Source: Flavobacteriaceae bacterium (GTDB taxonomy: Bacteria > Bacteroidota > Bacteroidia > Flavobacteriales > Flavobacteriaceae). Taken from it: a DNA stretch of 64,000 nt. Positions within the stretch are counted from its first letter, which is position 1; each line of letters starts with the position of its first letter. Location: positions 33,784 to 97,783 of the forward strand of contig JBLHIC010000001.1 in assembly GCA_047614245.1 (NCBI GenBank), in the 5' to 3' direction. Positions 24,288 through 35,536 of this stretch are shown here, one piece after another. The translations under genes were made by a program, and so were the position numbers. The notes beneath the pieces are model-generated. The model worked only from the letters and a program-made list of their open reading frames with translations, ran no database searches and had not been told where the DNA came from.

Positions 24288-25058
24288 TTAGTGACTAAGA
24301 TTTCTAATTTGTCCTTTAAGATCATCCATAGATTGCTGTAATTGCCTTAAAAGACCATTTTCACTAGGCTCATCTATACCAAAGGTGAGTTTACTGTTTA
24401 CTAACCACAACTCTTGAATCTCTTTAATCTCAACGTTAATTGGCAGGTATTGATCATTCAACGAAACGAGCGTTACCTTGTCTGGGGAATTCGCAACTTT
24501 CTGTAATTTCTTAACTAAAACCGAATCATTTAACACAACGATATAGATTTTACTGTCGCTTGCCTCAGAAATGCTTGGAACTGCTCTTCCCAGCACCCAC
24601 TCATTTGGTCTAATATTAGGTAGCATACTATCTCCCTCAACCTGAAATCCACGATACGTTGAATTTCGAAATTGTGGCAAAGGAATATTAAACGCTGGAA
24701 GTGATTCATACCATTCGACATCCTGAATATTATGCGGATAACCAGCCGCAGCTTTTTGATTTACAAGTAATATAGTGTCATTATCATCCTTATCAACACT
24801 GATTACTTTCGGACTAACATCACCCCCATTAATATTCACATATTGCGTAAAACTCTTCCCATAAAGCCATAATGGATTAATATTAAACAGTCGTAATAAT
24901 TCCATAATAACTTTACCAGAGAGTTTGGTCTTACCTCGTTCAATATCTGCTGTAGATCCCTTAATTCCAATTAATTCGGCAAAGGACTGTTGCGTTTGAT
25001 GTAATTCTTCGCGTACTTTTTTAAAACGTCTAGCTTCAATAGAGAGATCCTTTTCCAT
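24288..25058 (-). CDS. XRE-HTH/S24 peptidase repressor (non-canonical LexA-like)
   Basis: N-terminal HTH (TQQSFAELIG...IERG), AAAGY cleavage site, GDSM catalytic Ser and VKK catalytic Lys. Confidence 0.88.
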   Translation of the reverse strand: MEKDLSIEARRFKKVREELHQTQQSFAELIGIKGSTADIERGKTKLSGKVIMELLRLFNINPLWLYGKSFTQYVNINGGDVSPKVISVDKDDNDTILLVNQKAAAGYPHNIQDVEWYESLPAFNIPLPQFRNSTYRGFQVEGDSMLPNIRPNEWVLGRAVPSISEASDSKIYIVVLNDSVLVKKLQKVANSPDKVTLVSLNDQYLPINVEIKEIQELWLVNSKLTFGIDEPSENGLLRQLQQSMDDLKGQIRNLSH

Positions 25059-25061
25059 ACT

Positions 25062-25115
25062 CAAACATACTAATTATTTGGAATATTTCCAAGTATAAAT
25101 GGATTTTTTCCATTT
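25062..25115 (-). promoter_or_regulatory. Repressor promoter with two GGA-N5-TCC operator boxes
   Basis: Boxes GGA-ATATT-TCC (25080-25090) and GGA-TTTTT-TCC (25101-25111); minus-strand -7 TATGTTTG (25069-25062) and TTG 20 bp upstream. Confidence 0.75.
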
Positions 25116-25634: not shown

Positions 25635-27593
25635 TTACTTGGCAACGACAATAAACTCGGAGCGGCGGTTTTGTTGATGAATGTTATCCTCGCATTTCAC
25701 CCCATTAGAGCAATTGTTGATTAACATGGATTCACCGTAACCGCTTCCAGAAATTCGCAATTTATTTATTCCTCCTACTTCTACAATATATTCCATCGTG
25801 GATTTCGCTCTGCGGTCTGACAAACTTTTATTATAAGAATCCCTTCCCTTACTATCGGTATGAGCGCGCACATCTATTTTCACATTTGGATATTCATTCA
25901 GCAAAGCAACTAACTTCTGTAATTCAATTGCCGCATCAGGCCGTATATTAAAGCTATTTGAGGCGAAACGTATTGGATTTAAATTTAGAGTTTTTGCAAG
26001 GTCACTTCCTAATTCGATTGAATCCACCGAAAGATTCTTTCCTCTCTCGAGTAGCAACACTTGTTCAATTTTTTTATCCTTTTCCTTAGCACTAATAAAT
26101 GACTTTTCCTGCGTAGAATACCCTTCTTTAATTGAACGAGTAGCAAATGCCCTTGAACATTCTAAACTAAAGCTATACGAGCCGTCAGCCTTCGATTTAA
26201 CTTCGGAAAGAATTTCATTATTTTCATCCAATAAAATTACTGAAGCTTCTGGAATCGGATCCTTAGTAGCTGCATCCAAAACATAACCTTCCAAAATTTG
26301 ATCACAGCGTATCTCTAAGCGTTCGATTCTTTTGAACCTGTAGATGTCATCATCCCCATCGCCTCCTGGTCTATTTGATGCGAAGTAACCAAATTCTGTT
26401 TCCGCATTAATTATAAACGTAAAATCATCCTGGGGGCTATTAATCGGTTTTCCAACATTATAAACAGCTCCAAAAATATTTGATTCTTCAATTTCAGTAA
26501 CAAAAATATCCAACCCGCCAAGCCCAACATGACCGTCTGAAGCAAAATAGAACCGATTGTCGGATCCTACAAACGGGAAGGTTTCTCTTTCCTTAGTGTT
26601 AATCCCATCACCTAAACTGACAGGTTCGGTAAATCCATTCTCAAGTATTTCTACCTTATACAGATCTGAAAACCCCTTGCCTCCTGGCATGTCGCTTGCA
26701 AAATACAAGGTTTTCTCATCAACGCTTAAGGCAGGATGAGCCACTGAATATTCATTATTATTGAACGAAACCTCTTCCACTTCCCATTTACCATTATCTT
26801 TCTTTAGCCCTTGATATATCTTCAAACGATTTGCTCCTAGAGAATCTTTCTTATAACTTCCTTTGGTATAATTGTTACGGGTAAAATAAACAGTCTTTCC
26901 ATCCTTAGAAAAAACAGCCGTAGACTCGTGGTATTTAGTATTAATTCTCTCACTAAGTGATTTTATACTTCTACTCTCCTTTTTTTCCTTCACATTAATG
27001 ATATAGAGATCCAGAAATGGCTCATTATTCCAGTCGTGGGTTCTTGATCTCTCATTTTTAGATTGTCCATTTGAGGCAAATACTAAATCATCCAAATAAA
27101 AAGTTGGGGCAAAATCTGACTTACTAGTGTTAAATTTCCCGTGGTCTATTTCGAATCTCTCACGATATTTGATATCATTTAAATAATCTCTTTCTTTAGC
27201 GAAAAATTGAGCACGATTATCACTACCATTTACTCTATAAAACTCATCAATTATTTGATTGGAAGTCTCGTACTTTTCGATAGACTTCAATGATTGGGCG
27301 TATCTGTACAAGTAATTAGGATCAAGCCCATCTGAATAATCTGTATATAAAACTTCATACCATTTCGCTGCATTATCATAATCGGCAGTAAAGTAATAGG
27401 AATCTCCAAGTTTCTGTAAGAGATCTACCGAACTAAACCCATTTTCTACAACATGAAGATATGCCTGTCTAGCGTCAACGTAGGAATAACGATTGTACTT
27501 ATTATTTCCTTTTTCAACGTTCTCTTCTTGCCCCACAAGAGTATGTGAAAAAAGAAAAACTAACACCAAAAATATTTTAATAATATATTTCAT
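25635..27593 (-). CDS. PorE-like T9SS-associated protein (TPR, PD40 repeats, OmpA C-terminal domain)
   Basis: TPR-like N-terminus, PD40 repeats (LYFASDMPGG, YFASDGHVGLGGLDIF) and AHTDSKG...LSDRRA...NRRSEF OmpA motifs. Confidence 0.9.
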   Translation of the reverse strand: MKYIIKIFLVLVFLFSHTLVGQEENVEKGNNKYNRYSYVDARQAYLHVVENGFSSVDLLQKLGDSYYFTADYDNAAKWYEVLYTDYSDGLDPNYLYRYAQSLKSIEKYETSNQIIDEFYRVNGSDNRAQFFAKERDYLNDIKYRERFEIDHGKFNTSKSDFAPTFYLDDLVFASNGQSKNERSRTHDWNNEPFLDLYIINVKEKKESRSIKSLSERINTKYHESTAVFSKDGKTVYFTRNNYTKGSYKKDSLGANRLKIYQGLKKDNGKWEVEEVSFNNNEYSVAHPALSVDEKTLYFASDMPGGKGFSDLYKVEILENGFTEPVSLGDGINTKERETFPFVGSDNRFYFASDGHVGLGGLDIFVTEIEESNIFGAVYNVGKPINSPQDDFTFIINAETEFGYFASNRPGGDGDDDIYRFKRIERLEIRCDQILEGYVLDAATKDPIPEASVILLDENNEILSEVKSKADGSYSFSLECSRAFATRSIKEGYSTQEKSFISAKEKDKKIEQVLLLERGKNLSVDSIELGSDLAKTLNLNPIRFASNSFNIRPDAAIELQKLVALLNEYPNVKIDVRAHTDSKGRDSYNKSLSDRRAKSTMEYIVEVGGINKLRISGSGYGESMLINNCSNGVKCEDNIHQQNRRSEFIVVAK

Positions 27594-27613
27594 TTTTAAT
27601 AAGGTTTTATCTG

Positions 27614-28570
27614 TTAGAAGAATCTTGGAGAAACCATGTTCTCATTGCTTTTAAACAGTTCAAATCGCAACAGTATCTCGATCGACCCACTATTATATTT
27701 AGACAGCTCGGTAGTTTCTCTATCATACGCTAGACCCAACATCAATTGGTCGGTAATCTGAAATCCGGCCAGAGCACTTAAAGCAGCACTCCATCGATAT
27801 GCGGCTCCAAACGTAAACCTTTTGTTTATAAGAAAATTTGCTGAAAGGTCTGCTTGTAAGGGAGCGCCTTGTACTAATTTGACGAGAATTGCTGGCTTAA
27901 ACAATATGTTGTCTGTAAGATCCAATGTATGTCCTGATATGAAGTAATAATTAACTCTCTCTTTGGCAGTTGCATTTGATGCGCTTTCTGGATCAACTGA
28001 AGATTCGTCGAAATGTTCTGTTGCTAAAATATTTGGAGCGCTTAATCCGGCATAGAATCTATTCGTAAAATAATAGGCCCCCGCACCAAATTGTGGAGAA
28101 AATTTATTGTCAATAAATATTTCAGTATCTGGATCCCCAGGATTATAAGCTCCTTCATAAGCCCGATTACTATCCACATCTAATAAATGACCTCCCACCT
28201 TTAAACCAAATGAAAGTCGTCCTTTTTCAGAGACTTTAAACAGATAACTAAAGTCCAAGTCAACATAGGTTTCTTGAGTGATAAATATTTCGTCTTTTAC
28301 AACGTTAAGACCCAATGACACATTATTGGCAATTGGAGAATGAATGGAGGCCGTAAATGTTTTTGGCGTGCCTTTAATATTATTCCCGAACCATTGGTTT
28401 CTATATAAGCCTGTAAAACTCAGAACATCTCTTGTCCCAGCATAGGCTGGATTAACGCTCAACGTATTATACATGTATTGAGTATACTGAGGATCCTGTT
28501 GTGCACTAGAAATACTAGAATAAAACCCTAGAATCAAAAGCATTACTATAGTTAAGTTAATGTTTTTCAT
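27614..28570 (-). CDS. Type IX secretion PorP/SprF family membrane protein
   Basis: QQDPQYTQYMYN..VNPAYAG N-terminus and SPRFF C-terminus. Confidence 0.93.
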   Translation of the reverse strand: MKNINLTIVMLLILGFYSSISSAQQDPQYTQYMYNTLSVNPAYAGTRDVLSFTGLYRNQWFGNNIKGTPKTFTASIHSPIANNVSLGLNVVKDEIFITQETYVDLDFSYLFKVSEKGRLSFGLKVGGHLLDVDSNRAYEGAYNPGDPDTEIFIDNKFSPQFGAGAYYFTNRFYAGLSAPNILATEHFDESSVDPESASNATAKERVNYYFISGHTLDLTDNILFKPAILVKLVQGAPLQADLSANFLINKRFTFGAAYRWSAALSALAGFQITDQLMLGLAYDRETTELSKYNSGSIEILLRFELFKSNENMVSPRFF

Positions 28571-28623
28571 ACGATATGATATTTTACCTTCCGAATTTTA
28601 AAATTGGCAGGTATTTTATATTT

Positions 28624-30363
28624 CTAGTTTCTATTAATGTATAAAGGGCCTGCCAGTTGTTTCTCATTGCCATTTTCAGTAACATATGTCAATACATAGT
28701 AATATGTTCCTACCGGCAATCTCTCCGATTGACCTAAGGTGCTTCTGCCATTGGAGATTCCCCGGAAATAATTACCTCTAGCACCATAACCCAGAGCTTC
28801 AAATACTATTACTCCCCATCTATTATAGATTTTAACGGTGTTATCGGGATATTTATCTAGACCTCTAATCACGAATACATCGTTTAACCCATCTTCATTG
28901 GGAGTCATAATATCGAATATATCCAAATTATCTATTGAGTTTATATCCCCATTATTACATTCTAATAAATCCGGAATGTCATTGCCATTTTCGTCACCCA
29001 ATTCTTGGCCGTTTGCTATCCCATCTCCTTCTCCGTCGCAATCGCAATCAGCTAACTCCCAAGCTGCCGTTGGCACTAAAGACTGATTAGTATAGACGAA
29101 ATCACAAATATCGATTGGATTGGTACCGTCTATTATCTCATCACTATTAAGTACTCCATCACCGTCGCAATCGATAACATTCCATTGTACTGAAGTAGCA
29201 GAAGTTTGACTATTCACATCGAAATCGCATAACTCTAATGGATTAGTTCCATCAACAATTTCATTTGCATTCGACACACCGTCGCCATCACAATCAAAAC
29301 TATCCCAAGCTGTCGATGGATTGATTGTCTGGCTTGTAACTAAGAAACTACAAAGGCCATATGGGTCTGTACCATCTGCAATCTCGTCTCCGTTAGTTAT
29401 ACCATCACCATCACAATCAAGATCATTCCAATCTATACTCACAGCGGTTGTTTGACTAGCAGGATTAAAAGCACAAGGATTAAGCGGACCTGTACCATCT
29501 ATGACCTCATTACCGTTGGTAACTCCGTCACCATCACAATCGAAATTCTTCCAAGCATCGGACGGAGTAACCGTTTGATTTGCTAATATGAAATCACAAA
29601 AACCTTGTGGATCGGAACCATTGATAATTTCAGTACCATTCGTAACACCGTCACCGTCGCAATCAGACTCATTCCAATCACCTGTGGTTGAAATTGTTTG
29701 ACTTGTTACAACATAATCACACGGAACTTGTGGATCTGTACCATCTATAACTTCTTGGCCATTGGTTACTCCATCCCCATCACAATCTGCATCATTATAG
29801 TTTCCACCTACAGTGGAGGTTTGACTTGCAGCAATATAATCACAGAGGTCTTGTGGATCTGTACCATCAATTCCCTCCTGACCATTCGTTACTCCATCTC
29901 CATCGCAATCAGCATCATTCCAGCTATTAGAAGGGGGTACGGTTTGACTTGTTGATATAAAGTCACAAGTATCTTGTGGGTCTGTATCATTATCTATTTC
30001 AACACCATTAACAACACCATCACCATCGCAGTCTAATGTGTTCCAATCATTTGATACAGTAACTGTTTGACTTGCGGGTAGGTAATCACAAGGGTCATTT
30101 GGATCCGTTGAATCTATAACCTCCTGACCATCAATCACTCCATCACCATCAGAATCGCTGCCACTTACTATAGCGCTAGCGCCAACAGTTAATGTCATGT
30201 GCTCGATGAGCATCGTCATATTGTCGATAATCCCTAATCTTAATATTGATCCTGACAAAAAGTTTTGAGAAAAAGACGGGCTCGTGTTGAATACTAACAA
30301 CATAGCAATAAGGGCTCCCCTGCCTACAAATTTCGAAAATTGAGTGATATTTGTCATATGCAT
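28624..30363 (-). CDS. T9SS type-B CTD cargo protein with Asp/Cys-rich tandem repeats
   Basis: C-terminal TPNEDGLNDVF...IYNRWG...GTYYY gliding-motility-associated CTD; nine 41-aa D(C/S)DGDG..N..E...T.P...C repeats. Confidence 0.88.
   Translation of the reverse strand: MHMTNITQFSKFVGRGALIAMLLVFNTSPSFSQNFLSGSILRLGIIDNMTMLIEHMTLTVGASAIVSGSDSDGDGVIDGQEVIDSTDPNDPCDYLPASQTVTVSNDWNTLDCDGDGVVNGVEIDNDTDPQDTCDFISTSQTVPPSNSWNDADCDGDGVTNGQEGIDGTDPQDLCDYIAASQTSTVGGNYNDADCDGDGVTNGQEVIDGTDPQVPCDYVVTSQTISTTGDWNESDCDGDGVTNGTEIINGSDPQGFCDFILANQTVTPSDAWKNFDCDGDGVTNGNEVIDGTGPLNPCAFNPASQTTAVSIDWNDLDCDGDGITNGDEIADGTDPYGLCSFLVTSQTINPSTAWDSFDCDGDGVSNANEIVDGTNPLELCDFDVNSQTSATSVQWNVIDCDGDGVLNSDEIIDGTNPIDICDFVYTNQSLVPTAAWELADCDCDGEGDGIANGQELGDENGNDIPDLLECNNGDINSIDNLDIFDIMTPNEDGLNDVFVIRGLDKYPDNTVKIYNRWGVIVFEALGYGARGNYFRGISNGRSTLGQSERLPVGTYYYVLTYVTENGNEKQLAGPLYINRN
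28920..30160 (-). repeat. Intragenic 123-bp (41-aa) tandem repeat, 9 full units plus 1 partial
   Basis: Counted in the translation, e.g. DCDGDGVTNGQEVIDGTDPQVPCDYVVTSQTISTTGDWNES; boundaries approximate. Confidence 0.85.
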
Positions 30364-30656: not shown

Positions 30657-31083
30657 TTGGCTATAATCAACAAATCAAAGAACATAAAATTTGAAGATAT
30701 TACTGCCAAATTAAAAAAAACAGAACCAAGACTCTTATTCACATACCTTATCACTTACTACTTCTTTTGTCTGGCAATCAATTGGTTTTGTGTGGCATTA
30801 GAGATTGTAAGATTCCCCTTCTACTGGCAAGTCATTTCCGGTTACATTCTTTATATGAATCCAATTTCTATTTTATTAAAAAAAATCCTTTTTAACACAA
30901 TATGCCTATGCAATAGGAGACATGGTTTTCCTTGAATTTAATGGTTCCGCCTTAAAAACCTCTTACACCTACCCAAATAATATACTGGATCAATGGCTTG
31001 GCACCTTTATATTTTCTTCAGGAATGGCCTTATTCTTTATTGGCTACTTTACACTATGTAATAATCTGAATTACAGACTTTAA
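30657..31083 (+). pseudogene. Possible frameshifted membrane-protein remnant
   Basis: Hydrophobic ORF 30657..30935 plus an open +1 frame 30886..31083 (SFLTQYAYAIG...LGTFIFSSGMALFFIGYFTL), meeting at an A8 run (30878-30885); no family recognised. Confidence 0.3.
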
Positions 31084-31247
31084 GGCTCTATTCTTTGAAA
31101 AAAAAATACAAATAAATAATATAAATATTATCTTTCTTGTGGCAATTTAACTATGTTTGTTAGGTTATTGTAAGAAAAAACTGAATAATTTGTAGGATTT
31201 TTCCTTAATGTTTTATAGATTAGCCCCCTAATTTAAAATATATTAAG

Positions 31248-31370
31248 ATGAAAAAGCTAATGTTTATTTTCGCATTACTTGCATTAGTTGCAAGTTGTAC
31301 CCCAGAATCATTAACAAGTGATGAGCAGCAACTCGACAAAGACAAATACGAAATTCCACCAAACGGATAG
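31248..31370 (+). CDS. 40-aa lipopeptide (not in ORF track)
   Basis: MKKLMFIFALLALVASCTPESLTSDEQQLDKDKYEIPPNG*; A-rich start context and VASC lipobox. Confidence 0.8.
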   Translation: MKKLMFIFALLALVASCTPESLTSDEQQLDKDKYEIPPNG

Positions 31371-31836
31371 AAAAAAAAGCCTTCTCACAGGGGTGTTCCT
31401 GTCATTGTTAATAATAGCAACACCCTTTTTATTCTACATTTATAAATACGCCCCTGACGCGAAAGAATGGGACACGATTTTTGGCACCATACGAGCAAGC
31501 GGATTTAGCAATGTCCAGACCTATATGCATGCCGTTTTTACCAAGTTTACATTTATATTACTTACTACTATCTGGTTCTTGACATCAAAGAATTGGTGGA
31601 AATATGCTATTCTCGTACCTCTTGTTATGTTCTTGTTCCAGTTTATCGGCGTTTTGAACTATGAACTTCAATATATAGACGAAGTTGACTTTTGGTATTC
31701 CTTACCAATAATATTACCCATACTTATCTTTCTTATCTACATTTCCTATAGAATTAGCAAAAATGAAAGTTATTCTTCAGATCTCATGACCGAAGTGGAC
31801 GATGAGATTAAAAAGTTGAAGGGCGAAGATCTATAG
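31321..31836 (+). CDS. Hypothetical 4-TM membrane protein overlapping the lipopeptide gene (start uncertain)
   Basis: TPFLFYIY...IWFLTSKNWWKYAILVP hydrophobic segments; first 50 nt overlap the lipopeptide gene in the +1 frame. Confidence 0.75.
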   Translation: MSSNSTKTNTKFHQTDRKKSLLTGVFLSLLIIATPFLFYIYKYAPDAKEWDTIFGTIRASGFSNVQTYMHAVFTKFTFILLTTIWFLTSKNWWKYAILVPLVMFLFQFIGVLNYELQYIDEVDFWYSLPIILPILIFLIYISYRISKNESYSSDLMTEVDDEIKKLKGEDL

Positions 31837-31956: not shown

Positions 31957-32418
31957 ATATGGCCATGTGATAACCACGATAAAAAACTAAAGGACTTTAA
32001 AGCAAAGGCGAAAATTTTATTCCGAATTCAAAAATTAGAAACTGATGAACATTTTGGCGACTTCAAAACGGTTGGCGATGGAATTAGAGAATTGCGAATA
32101 AATAATTTAATAAAGGCAGTAAATAAGTTAGAAAGAGATGAAAAAAAAGAGAAAGAAATAGTTAAAAGAGAAAGAAGGAGTGAGATAAACAAAGAAGAAA
32201 GAAAATATTTTTTAGAGAAATATGGCGAGAAGATATTTAACAAATTAGACAATGGTAAATATTGGATTGGAATGACCGAGGAAATGGTGCGGTTTTCACT
32301 TGGAAATCCAAAAGACATTAACAGAAGTACTGGCAGTTACGGTGTTCACGAACAATGGGTTTATAGTAATAGAAACTTATACTTTGAAAATGGAGTATTA
32401 ACCTCCTATCAAAATTAA
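31957..32418 (+). pseudogene. Chimeric remnant: RelE/ParE-type addiction-module toxin fragment fused in frame to a hypothetical C-terminal domain
   Basis: 31981-32103 reads KKLKDFKAKAKILFRIQKLETDEHFGDFKTVGDGIRELRIN, then continues into ...WIGMTEEMVRFSLGNP...EQWVY...LYFENG; in-frame stop at 31954 and no canonical start upstream of the toxin-like part. Confidence 0.65.
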
Positions 32419-32429
32419 CTTTGATACGA

Positions 32430-32460
32430 CAAATGTCATATTCTAAGAATATAACAACTC
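32430..32460 (+). repeat. 31-bp direct repeat, copy 1
   Basis: CAAATGTCATATTCTAAGAATATAACAACTC; matches 33299-33329 at 30/31 positions. Confidence 0.85.
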
Positions 32461-32487
32461 TTGGTTCTCTATTAATCTAAACCTATT

Positions 32488-33176
32488 ATGAAATATTTAA
32501 AGTTAATTCTTATCCTAATTATTACATTAGGTTATACATCTTGTGGAGAAACCCAGGATAAAAAGGAGAGTAAAAAAGAAGTAGAATATTCTACTTCGAA
32601 TGAAGAAGGCCCAGAATCTAAAATGCTAGGAATTTGGATAACCAGCTCACAAAGTTCTCAGGATATAATAACTTCTATTTTAACAATAGAAAAAGATGGA
32701 AGCATGATATCTGTAAATTACGTAGTATCTAGCCTAGCTACTTTAAGTTCTAGGGAATTTAACTTCTTGGGAGAATACAATAAGGGAGTAATAAAACTAG
32801 GAGAAGAGAGATTTACGGATATAAAGTATTCAGAGAATAACAATGAAATATATTTCCAAGGAGATGCTTTCAGATATAAGGAAGCTATACCTAAAAAAGC
32901 AAAAAAAGAAAGTCCAGGGAAATTACCTGAGCCAACTAAAAAAGAAAAAAAATATTAAATATTAATGTTGACAACCTAAGAGTAAGAACAAGTCCTAATT
33001 TAAACGGAGAAAAAATCGAGAATTTAGCTATTAATAGTAAAGTAGAACTTATTAGAAAATCAAAAGACCAGACCACCGTTACAATTAATGAAAAAGATAT
33101 TACAGATTATTGGTATAAAATAAAAACTAGAAATGGCAATATTGGTTGGATTCACGGATGTTGTTTCGATAAGTAA
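32488..33176 (+). pseudogene. Lipoprotein with C-terminal SH3b domain, split by a frameshift at an A8 run
   Basis: Lipoprotein ORF 32488..32958 (YTSC lipobox); the -1 frame 32952..33176 encodes ILNINVDNLRVRTSPNLNGEKI...DYWYKIKTRNGNIGWIHGCCFDK*. Confidence 0.75.
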
Positions 33177-33298
33177 TTGCAAAGCGTAATTACATCAAAC
33201 GGATAAATTGTAAAATAAAAGTTAGACTTATAACTCAACAGGAATATGATGTAATCAAAGAATAATACAATCAATAACACAATTTCACTTTAAGACAG

Positions 33299-33329
33299 CA
33301 AATGTCATATTTTAAGAATATAACAACTC
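33299..33329 (+). repeat. 31-bp direct repeat, copy 2
   Basis: CAAATGTCATATTTTAAGAATATAACAACTC, followed by A-TAATTTTG (-7-like element). Confidence 0.85.
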
Positions 33330-33426
33330 ATAATTTTGCATCATTAATTCTCAGTTAATTTGGAGAAAGAAAGACGTTGGTCGGGTTCGCCGCTTCAAGC
33401 TCTATTGGGAAATAGTTTTAGGCATA

Positions 33427-34248
33427 TTACCCCAAATTGTCTTTGTAACCTGTCCAAAATTTGCCTGTATCTTCTATTTTTGATATAATTTTTGTTTTTT
33501 CTTGTGTAACTCGTAATCTTAGTGTGTAACCATTCGGATCGTCTAATAAACGATTATTAATATGTTTAACTCTTTGGGCGTTATTCAGGAAGTGACCACC
33601 TATATCATATTGTTTCCAATGAGCTACAAACTCGTCATAATACATTGGAGTTTTTCTACGAGTAAGGTGATGATGATACTCATGAACTAATATACTCATG
33701 AACTTAACATCTGCCTTTACGTCACGCTGAATGGCAGCAAGGCCATTATTGAAGAAGTCAAATTTACTTCTATTTATCATTAGCGTACCCTGTCCCCTAA
33801 CCTCCATGTTAGATGTGCCTGAATCAGTAAAGATTATGTTATATTTTGCGCCCCCTAATAGATTTTTCCAACCCTGCATTGAGTTCATTAATAAATATTT
33901 GCCTTGTCCAGAATATTCATCAATCAGGAATGATATTTTAGCAATATCTAAATCACGTTTCATTTCTTTTTCAAGAGCGGCTACAGCTTCTTTTTGCGCC
34001 GTTTTCCCCTCATTGTAACCCGCCTTATTAAATAATATAATTTTGTTATGCTTACTACTTTTGTTTTTGTCTATAGCCTGTTGGAGTTCTACAAGTGCAT
34101 TTCTACCTTGAGTATTAATATAGGTTGGCGTATTAGGGACAATCCTGTTATAAGCCTCTAATCGTTTGCAAATTGCAGAATAAGTGCTGCCCCTAGAGTT
34201 TGAAGGTTGTCCTCCTTCTTGAGTAAAAGACATTAATTGATAATTCAT
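33427..34248 (-). CDS. Hypothetical protein with HExxH zinc-metallopeptidase motif
   Basis: 273-aa ORF; ILVHEYHH...YYDEFVAH; no signal peptide. Confidence 0.6.
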   Translation of the reverse strand: MNYQLMSFTQEGGQPSNSRGSTYSAICKRLEAYNRIVPNTPTYINTQGRNALVELQQAIDKNKSSKHNKIILFNKAGYNEGKTAQKEAVAALEKEMKRDLDIAKISFLIDEYSGQGKYLLMNSMQGWKNLLGGAKYNIIFTDSGTSNMEVRGQGTLMINRSKFDFFNNGLAAIQRDVKADVKFMSILVHEYHHHLTRRKTPMYYDEFVAHWKQYDIGGHFLNNAQRVKHINNRLLDDPNGYTLRLRVTQEKTKIISKIEDTGKFWTGYKDNLG

Positions 34249-34485
34249 ACTAATCTTTCTATGTTATTTGAGTAGCTGACTTTGAGTAGTTAGTATCTCA
34301 TATAAATATTTATTGATAACAATATATACATTATACACCATTCTGAAAAATCAATGGCGATGAAATATGCTAAAAAAGTAACTGCTGGTCTAAATAAATT
34401 ATCTGAAGAGATTAAATCTGGAATACAACAAGATTTTAAAACAAATGATCGTTGGTAGTATAAATCAATAACAACACTTTGTTTG

Positions 34486-34519
34486 AAACCCTTGCATTCA
34501 CTTGTAAGGGTTTTTTTTT
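34486..34519 (+). terminator. Intrinsic terminator
   Basis: AAACCCTTGCA-TTCACT-TGTAAGGG followed by T9. Confidence 0.7.
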
Positions 34520-34563
34520 ATATCTTTAGGATCGCACCTCTCCCCTATTTAACACTTCAAGTA

Positions 34564-34797
34564 ATGACACTCAGAGATTTTGAAAAGCTAAACCATAGTG
34601 ACCGCTACGATGTGAATATGGACTATGCCGAGTTTATTTGCGTCCACTCAGTCTCAGGGAAAAAATATTTACTTTATTCACGAGGCAATTTCTATATTGA
34701 GCAAGAATGGGATTATCCAGACAAAAGAATATTAGAGAGAAGAGCTTTTACTTCTGATAATGCTTCGCTTGACACATACAATAGTCTCACTTTATAA
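34564..34797 (+). CDS. Small hypothetical protein
   Basis: ATG at 34564: MTLRDFEKL...YLLYSRGNFYIEQEWD...LDTY; resembles a small Flavobacteriaceae family (recalled, not searched). Confidence 0.6.
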   Translation: MTLRDFEKLNHSDRYDVNMDYAEFICVHSVSGKKYLLYSRGNFYIEQEWDYPDKRILERRAFTSDNASLDTYNSLTL

Positions 34798-34800
34798 ATT

Positions 34801-35112
34801 ATGAAAAAACAACACAAAAAGAGTAAAGAAAAGAATAAACCACAATTCACCGACGAAGAAGTCTATACACCGACACTAGATATAGGTGCCCTACTAAATG
34901 ACCCTGCAATTGAGGCAGCCTATCAAAAACACTACAAAGGTGACAAGCTTTACCAAGAAACAACAAGCGATACGGAAGAGACGTTTCCTAGCTTTTCAAC
35001 TAAAAAGCTCGAACTCACTTTAAAAGTAATACGTGGTGGCAATGAACCAGGTGAAACACAACGTGTGGGAGATAAAATTGAAAAAGAATTGAATAGAAGG
35101 AAACAATTATAA
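34801..35112 (+). CDS. Hypothetical protein
   Basis: 103-aa ORF starting 3 bp after the previous stop. Confidence 0.55.
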   Translation: MKKQHKKSKEKNKPQFTDEEVYTPTLDIGALLNDPAIEAAYQKHYKGDKLYQETTSDTEETFPSFSTKKLELTLKVIRGGNEPGETQRVGDKIEKELNRRKQL

Positions 35113-35137
35113 GTTAATCATTAATCGAATCTAAGTA

Positions 35138-35536
35138 ATGAATTTCCAAAATATCATAAATGACATAACTAATCAAGCAATTGCTGAATTAGAGAAATCT
35201 CCAGTTTTTCAAAGAACAAATGAGGATAGGCTAAAAGCTGTTGGAAATATTTATTTTTTATATTCTAATGAGAATCTAAAATACATTGGACAAAGACAAG
35301 CAAACGGAATAAAAACTAGACTTTCTCAACATCTTTTTGGAAAATCATACTCTGAAGACAATAACAATGTTCAAAACGGAACAGTATCTAAATGGAATAA
35401 AGTAAATGAAGAACTCGAAAAAGGAAAAAAAATAACTTTTAGAACAATTCACATTAAACCAGACAGCTTGCGAACAACTATTGAATTAGAATTAATTAAC
35501 TATTTCAAGCCAAAGTGGAACATTCAAGGAAAATAA
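35138..35536 (+). CDS. GIY-YIG nuclease family protein
   Basis: NIYFLY...KYIGQ, RLSQH, E-LI and P-WN motifs in GIY-YIG order. Confidence 0.75.
   Translation: MNFQNIINDITNQAIAELEKSPVFQRTNEDRLKAVGNIYFLYSNENLKYIGQRQANGIKTRLSQHLFGKSYSEDNNNVQNGTVSKWNKVNEELEKGKKITFRTIHIKPDSLRTTIELELINYFKPKWNIQGK

Follow-up and report, generated by a model that had tools for sequence, protein, structure and literature searches.

Phr, PapR and NprX, the peptides read by RRNPP receptors, are made as precursors with a signal peptide, a spacer and a short C-terminal core, from genes that adjoin that of the cognate partner. In attenuators of the pyrBI type, a ribosome translating across a terminator hairpin prevents termination. 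To our knowledge, no peptide signalling system has been characterised in Flavobacteriaceae, and a literature search for one found none. CylR2 of Enterococcus faecalis belongs to the XRE class. In the CylR1/CylR2 system the peptide signal reaches the repressor through a small membrane protein, by a route that the available text of one account describes as unknown (PMC3709268).

Here, we compare these systems with a gene pair from the window, a 64,000-nucleotide stretch of a Flavobacteriaceae genome (GenBank assembly GCA_047614245.1, contig JBLHIC010000001.1, positions 33,784 to 97,783 of the forward strand). Its features are as follows.

31191..31208, no strand assigned: imperfect palindrome TGTAGG-N6-CCTACA, a candidate operator that may lie over the promoter
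31216..31223, plus strand: TAGATTAG, which departs from TAnnTTTG at one position, a candidate -7 promoter element of the Bacteroidota type
31248..31370, plus strand: peptide precursor ORF, 40 aa, with signal region 1-16, lipobox Cys17, spacer and core
31318..31323, plus strand: internal starts (GTG followed by ATG) for the membrane gene in the +1 frame, some 50 nt upstream of the stop codon of the peptide
31318..31836, plus strand: four-helix inner-membrane protein of an unnamed family, 172 aa, predicted N-in/C-in, with two acidic outer loops and a WFxT-x(3)-WW motif
31332..31367, plus strand: conserved core LDKDKYEIPPNG, 12 residues, the predicted mature signal
31389..31433, plus strand: terminator-like hairpin (31389-31427) and U tract within the codons of the first transmembrane helix (TM1), -14.3 kcal/mol

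The gene pair likely works most like CylR1/CylR2, though it is not a member of that family, from which the lack of a lantibiotic inducer and of an adjacent regulator sets it apart. Both would have an exported peptide that acts as inducer, a small membrane protein that lacks a kinase domain and, as a further small protein, a DNA-binding repressor, which here was found in relatives (compared with the available text of PMC3709268). Unlike CylR1/CylR2, the pair belongs to a Gram-negative host, its membrane protein has four helices rather than the three of CylR1, and its peptide is an unmodified Sec-type or lipoprotein precursor rather than a lantibiotic subunit, with no toxin operon at the window locus. 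It also differs in that the peptide gene overlaps the membrane gene, and in that a regulator is linked at a minority of loci only, the window locus not among them. With the RRNPP pheromones (Phr, PapR, NprX) it shares the succession of signal peptide, spacer and short C-terminal core beside a partner gene. The peptide gene comes first, however, and the partner is a polytopic membrane protein rather than a cytoplasmic TPR protein; Pfam gave no TPR or RRNPP-receptor match in it, and we rejected membership of the RRNPP systems on these grounds. As in pyrBI attenuators, a ribosome crossing the hairpin would prevent termination. Here, however, the ORF that runs across the hairpin is the very membrane gene under control, and the hairpin bases also encode a transmembrane helix. 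More generally, the export signal and conserved short core of a peptide quorum-sensing pair are both present. The coat and lysis genes of MS2, so far as the available text goes (PMC12548453), offer the same -50 nt overlap and a downstream start inside a strongly translated upstream gene. In MS2 it is RNA structure over the start site that controls, whereas in the gene pair the hairpin lies 3' of the stop and non-overlapping versions exist.

Distribution of the gene pair

The gene pair is conserved, real and widespread, and apparently undescribed: our literature search, which covered main texts, found no description of it. By profile search, the 4-TM family is present in 143 of 200 Flavobacteriaceae genomes sampled at one per genus, or about 70% of genera. 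A phylum-level sample of 300 genomes yielded it in 6 of the 22 Flavobacteriaceae members and gave no credible member outside the family; one match there (G369, E 7e-4) falls inside an unrelated large transporter-like ORF and was discarded. The loci examined comprise 30 close loci, the window copy, its paralogue and 128 loci from the strongest matches of the 200-genome search, with the 47 weakest outside the set. Two duplicates (L033, L053), an unanchored fragment (L092) and a locus with a peptide followed by a truncated copy (L070) were left out before counting. Carriers are related by descent, so that all counts overstate independence.

Among the matches listed, an upstream ORF with a hydrophobic signal region occurs at 162 of 162 anchored membrane genes, which bears out the two-gene peptide and membrane-protein module proposed in the initial annotation of this DNA. 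That annotation had also taken the peptide to be unannotated. It is in fact already called in public gene sets, as are 7 of 9 tested relatives, under the name "hypothetical protein" where there is a name.

The window genome (G000) carries a second pair, 34% identical and of the same layout, between tsaE and alanine dehydrogenase (contig C37, L031:4185-4794, minus strand, a porX-tsaE-ald site; core VDNSLKPPRQG). This tsaE-ald interval is the common chromosomal site in most genera, and the window copy, which lies near mutS and two tRNAs, falls in a clade of its own. Of 250 genomes, 11 yielded a distant subfamily (hhalign probability 89.5%, 21% identity). In 12 of its 12 copies the peptide has a related core, the overlap is +1 and an ATG stands 67-115 nt away from the start of the peptide gene.

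The overlap and its internal start

On re-reading, the coordinates, the sequence, the 40-aa ORF, its lipobox, the 24-aa mature form and the junction at the peptide stop (CCA CCA AAC GGA TAG AAA) are all as the initial annotation gave them. Its placement of the membrane gene in the +1 frame, with GTG 31318 and ATG 31321 inside the peptide gene, is likewise correct and extends to the family beyond what chance would give: the frame is +1 in 139 of 139 overlapping copies, defined as those with the peptide stop within 100 nt of the TM1 proline. In 22 further copies the genes lie further apart, in all three frames, and 21 of the 22 have a downstream ATG. Overlapping and separated layouts have switched 7 times on a quick tree, with at least 2 switches forced by strong branches.

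The +1 ATG recurs well beyond chance. One lies at least 12 codons before the peptide stop in 104 of 107 overlaps of the wide sample, against 34.8 +/- 4.2 in synonymous shuffles, which answers the check on conservation of the internal ATG proposed in the initial annotation. In the close clade, the figure is 18 of 31 against 8.5 expected from such shuffles, and the exact start varies (n = 31: ATG in 18, GTG only in 6, a later ATG in 7). Separated loci have an ATG of the same type in 4 of 22 cases, against 5.4 expected from synonymous shuffles. Judged against these shuffles, the internal ATG is under selection, and only in overlapping copies. It sits mostly at peptide codons 25-30, a position that is kept when cores are repeated.

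The relevant start determinant, in the available text of PMC6847099, is A at -3, -6, -12 and -13. Neither internal start of the window has an A at -3, as had been noted, the bases being C at GTG 31318 and G at ATG 31321. We scored start contexts with a rough model built from 766 long ORFs and ranked them among the presumed starts of the genome. The peptide ATG reached the 76th percentile, in keeping with the strong start claimed for it. The weakness claimed for the internal start applies to ATG 31321 (11th percentile) but less so to GTG 31318, which at the 37th is not very weak. Median context scores were 3.67 for peptide starts, 0.39 for internal starts and -3.46 for internal methionines.

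Termination-reinitiation requires very short spacing, according to the available text of PMC10666635 and PMC12548453, and is therefore unlikely across 50 nt, although the MS2 coat and lysis genes are coupled through RNA structure at such a spacing (PMC12548453). The initial annotation had suggested recoding or frameshifting at the Pro-Pro stop, which the comparison did not support: only 49 of 162 peptides have Pro-Pro in their last six residues, and beyond the close clade only 20 of 130 do; the codons at the junction vary (among them GGA, GGG, GGT, AGG, TTA and AAA); selection acts on the internal ATG; and the 22 separated copies have their own start. Since the ATG is selected, Pro-Pro rare and the junction variable, the membrane protein most likely has its own, weak start, and a prfB-type +1 frameshift was rejected for the variable junctions and the selected ATG.

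Programmed +1 frameshifting at the PPNG stop, or close to it, that produced a fusion of signal peptide and membrane protein would nevertheless explain why the +1 relation is fixed in all 139 overlaps with the +1 frame open for at least 14 codons in every one. It would also suit GGA TAR as the commonest junction, the A-runs of lysine-rich cores, the slip-type codon in 91 of 139 copies and, from the available text of PMC10798248, the +1 shift of Flavobacteriales prfB without a Shine-Dalgarno element. The selected ATG, however, already accounts for the open frame; the last sense codon could pair anew at both first positions following a +1 slip in only 34 of 139 copies; junctions in the distant subfamily are unrelated; and separated copies occupy all three frames. 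Moreover, the basic N-terminal extension predicts a cytoplasmic N-terminus, and a fused signal peptide would invert this N-in topology. We regard such a frameshift as very improbable.

A terminator-like hairpin in the codons of TM1

The hairpin within TM1 is absent from the initial annotation and is new here. In the window it has a z of -2.5 against dinucleotide shuffles and -4.3 against synonymous shuffles, and its position, about 55 nt 3' of the peptide stop, is conserved. A hairpin with U tract at or below -10 kcal/mol was found at 33 of 35 close loci, 66 of 104 other overlapping loci and 20 of 22 separated loci, compared with 14 of 35, 20 of 104 and 3 of 22 in control windows. At separated loci it is an ordinary intergenic terminator, whereas at overlapping loci it is spelled in TM1 codons. 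Scored against synonymous shuffles, the TM1 hairpin has a median z of -3.2 at close, -1.7 at other overlapping and -0.1 at separated loci, while control windows give values of about 0. The z values are mixed for overlapping copies that nest among separated ones, and 38 of the 104 wider overlapping loci are without a strong hairpin. In the distant subfamily, 7 of 12 copies encode a TM1 hairpin at z of -3.8 or below, with different residues and unrelated junctions.

Pairing registers differ (22, 8 and 1 of 35 close loci), which partly explains why fixed-column covariation is weak, its score being reached by 54 of 500 shuffles. A generic terminator scanner did not report the window hairpin because the loop region is beyond the limits of the scanner. 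In two metatranscriptomes, from runs that had been picked using the window stretch (shares 0.16 and 0.06), contigs cover pieces of both ORFs; strand, ends and levels are not readable from them.

The predicted terminator would end most transcripts after the peptide, and the membrane protein is therefore likely scarce. Probably, the layout provides for much peptide and for little membrane protein, the latter made from its own weak +1-frame start and held down by the predicted TM1 terminator.

The same layout could belong to a leader acting in cis, in which translation or export of the peptide governs terminator read-through or access to the internal start and the product itself matters little. 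The 50-nt overlap of the window equals the MS2 coat/lysis spacing reported in the available text of PMC12548453, the internal start is weak, and the hairpin of some copies has its 5' arm in contact with the peptide stop. Yet the 22 separated copies, with their intergenic terminator, keep the peptide core, and there is no conserved stalling motif, Pro-Pro being limited to the 49 of 162 peptides. Where cores are repeated (L086, L111, L195, L196), the distance to the ATG is fixed from the peptide start and not from the stop, and the repeats and extra gene copies argue for the product. We consider a cis-acting leader improbable. An arrest-peptide monitor of the SecM, MifM or VemP kind was discarded for the same rarity of Pro-Pro and for a downstream gene that is not a known translocation factor.

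Candidate promoter and operator

The available text of PMC6847099 gives TAnnTTTG as the promoter consensus. An exact match occurs within 70 nt upstream of the peptide ATG at 129 of 161 loci, against 9.5 in shuffles, mostly 35-41 nt before the ATG. An internal promoter inside the peptide gene was rejected, with 8 of 139 loci against 20 expected. The palindrome that may serve as operator recurs at 15 of 35 close-clade loci against 1.3 in shuffles, a count that is partly circular because the motif was picked by eye from the very loci counted. Two other box motifs, GGA-N4/N5-TCC and CTAA-N5-TTAG, are not conserved at the loci.

The peptide precursor and its core

The lipobox VAS-C17 of the window ORF predicts a mature form of 24 aa that ends in IPPNG, within the tail DKDKYEIPPNG. 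Across the family, the core [IV][DE][KR]xK[IY][EK][VI]Px[NH]G is recovered by profile in 142 of 161 peptides and is exactly 12 residues long in 76. The initial annotation had proposed to look for a conserved lipobox peptide with a Pro-Pro tail. The peptide itself is found at all 162 loci, but the tail, as above, in only 49, and the lipobox in 86, the window copy included; the other 76 precursors have signal-peptide-like N-termini without the cysteine motif. Within the close clade, conservation of the core (81%) is barely higher than that of the remainder of the peptide (77-78%).

Eight precursors contain tandem core repeats of 2 to 6 units (L061, L086, L111, L120, L128, L151, L195, L196). One locus has two peptide genes (L205), and in a complete genome 6 nearly identical 49-aa peptide genes stand in tandem ahead of 1 membrane gene (L177:4997-6150, plus strand). 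The repeats and the six tandem genes imply that the amount of product matters, and from these patterns the peptide product itself appears to matter.

These precursors also bear on the notion of an envelope sentinel, a tethered or periplasmic peptide that reports its own trafficking within the same cell in the manner of RcsF or NlpE. The lipobox of the 86 precursors is what such a sentinel would carry, the 76 without one speak against it, and the polyprotein-like repeats suggest that free units are released. We give this possibility little credence, rather less than we give the cis-acting leader.

Pfam and NCBIfam returned nothing above cut-offs for the peptide, and PHROG one marginal match of unknown function. 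A 430-aa protein in its cluster proved unrelated and was set aside. No processing protease was found linked to the gene pair, and no modification or export genes flank the peptide gene in the window. Elsewhere in the window genome (contig C166, near 3275, minus strand), a short lipopeptide-like ORF whose start reads CTPQS and whose tail is poly-proline gives a weak match to the peptide profile (E 5e-4).

The membrane protein and its family

A confident predicted model from a 139-row alignment (pLDDT 82.7, pTM 0.72) shows four helices, of which the first loop holds a beta-hairpin, followed by a helix at the C-terminus. The N-terminal extension is very basic (6.6 K/R on average), and the charges predict a cytoplasmic N-terminus with loops 1 and 3 acidic and outside. 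Beyond the four helices, the model offers a short helical tail only, and there is no kinase domain. The best 150 family representatives range from 103 to 466 aa, with the membrane domain single or in tandem; the wider family includes forms of about 200 aa with a helical cytoplasmic tail and tandem forms of about 400 aa. A search for longer fused forms found none but is a weak test, since it also overlooked the tandem forms of about 400 aa.

At the cut-offs used, the membrane protein belongs to no family in Pfam, NCBIfam, PHROG or PADLOC. Foldseek against solved folds returned none at E of 0.001 or below (best Z 7.8, a generic helical subunit), and an Atlas lookup led to "hypothetical protein" clusters only. 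A known anti-phage or holin family was rejected, as PADLOC matched 0 of 7 proteins and the window membrane protein has no PHROG match.

Core charge and loop charge are weakly and inversely related, with rho at -0.37 over 139 copies and at -0.22 once the close clade is left out, both without correction for kinship. A complex prediction for the membrane protein with peptide residues 11-40 scored 0.00, was run without controls and weighs neither way.

XRE-type regulators and neighbouring genes

In relatives, the family is linked to genes for XRE-type regulators. Such a gene stands tail-to-tail with 11 of 12 loci of long-tail paralogues, and these paralogues adjoin the XRE gene without a peptide gene of their own. 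Of 200 genomes, 21 have the XRE subfamily and 143 the gene pair; in 5 of the 7 genomes outside profile building the XRE subfamily lies within 3 kb of a family member. Two loci that group with the clade of the window (L058, L060; support 100) have, after the peptide and membrane-protein genes, a gene for a 64-65-aa protein similar to the long tail and then a convergent XRE gene. A helix-turn-helix repressor gene is also found beside L198, L199 and L205, and in the distant subfamily a convergent helix-turn-helix gene, by profile, accompanies 4 of 12 copies, with a small ORF after the membrane gene in 7. Pfam recognises the helix-turn-helix in just 1 of 16 members of the main XRE subfamily, which is thin support. 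At the window locus neither a small partner gene nor such an XRE gene is present, and none was found in the window genome (83.5% complete). The upstream HTH-S24 gene (24288-25064) was rejected as partner because in G048 its locus is without a module ORF; its neighbour in G048 also occurs upstream of several close-clade modules.

The neighbourhoods vary further. At L176:2600-5496, four long-tail membrane paralogues in a row converge on one XRE gene. At L181:2006-6904, a C39-peptidase ABC exporter and a thioredoxin-like gene form a cluster between module and XRE gene, divergent from the latter, and at L182 a gene for an Rce1-like protease is divergent from the XRE gene; the exporter cluster and the protease gene could be regulated targets. 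An ORF upstream of the close-clade module at L058:456-836 and L191:3030-3410 (minus strand) has, by eye, a stretch like a double-glycine leader; it lies in a phage-like region and has no Pfam match. An outer-membrane beta-barrel gene is convergent with the membrane gene at many tsaE-site loci (L059, where it is PF14905, L071 and similar), and an AraC-type gene converges on it at a few related loci only (L045, L049, L051).

Within the window, two adjacent ORFs in different frames (30657-31083, plus strand) match the N- and C-terminal parts, at 39% and 57% identity, of one 143-aa membrane protein whose gene in L003 is unbroken and precedes the module; they represent either a pseudogene with a frameshift or a fault of the assembly. 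A variable island (31969-35536) separates the module from tRNA-Leu/tRNA-Gly, at a site that differs among relatives, with a 46-aa RelE/HI1419-like fragment (TIGR02683, partial), a headless ORF (32092-32418) and a GIY-YIG-like ORF (35138-35536). On the minus strand, 25635-30363 has a gene for a repeat-rich 579-aa protein, then PorP/SprF-like and OmpA-like genes; inspected by eye, this is a cargo cluster of type IX secretion with nothing out of the ordinary.

Some of these surroundings recall an inhibitor/effector pair, in which the peptide would shut a harmful membrane protein, as an antiholin or antitoxin does, or would be an antimicrobial paired with an immunity factor. The peptide-heavy expression hierarchy fits such a pair equally. 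L191 and L192 lie among phage- or mobile-element-like genes, the C39 peptidase ABC exporter stands between pair and XRE gene in L181, and one distant member has a weak holin match in PHROG (28 residues, E 0.004). However, the 7 proteins searched had no match in PADLOC, the main copy is kept at the tsaE/alanine dehydrogenase site in most genera, long-tail paralogues exist without a peptide gene of their own, and signalling explains the XRE linkage more easily. We therefore rate an inhibitor/effector pair as unlikely, if less so than the cis-acting leader.

Proposed signalling function and its implications

A peptide and its receptor is the likeliest reading of these comparisons, which establish the pairing, its frame, the selected start, the hairpin position, the core repeats and the XRE linkage in relatives. 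We think it somewhat probable that the exported peptide is a signal sensed by the overlapping four-helix membrane protein. Judging from sequence statistics, the promoter just upstream and the strong start would make the peptide abundant. The precursor would be exported, as predicted, lipidated in the window copy and, as the repeats suggest, trimmed to a core of about 12 residues. Ribosomes from the internal GTG or ATG would cross the hairpin and so may allow full-length mRNA. The basic-to-neutral core may then bind the two acidic outer loops, and the cytoplasmic helical tail may relay the signal to a regulator, which in related cassettes is likely the tail-to-tail XRE-type helix-turn-helix protein. 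Against this reading weigh the window locus, where small partner and XRE gene are both missing, the many carriers without that XRE subfamily, and the long-tail paralogues that adjoin an XRE gene but have no peptide gene of their own.

In Flavobacteriaceae at large, we suggest only tentatively that diversified 12-residue pheromones are read by new kinase-less four-helix receptors that control XRE repressors, that receptor dose is set by the TM1 attenuator, and that prophage-like elements carry their own versions. The annotated basic N-termini of the membrane family are the +1 reading of an overlooked peptide gene. A terminator-like hairpin kept in the codons of a transmembrane helix, and intergenic once the genes separate, would be an unusual way to set the ratio of peptide to receptor. 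Finally, such short cores can be synthesised, so the signalling question is directly testable.
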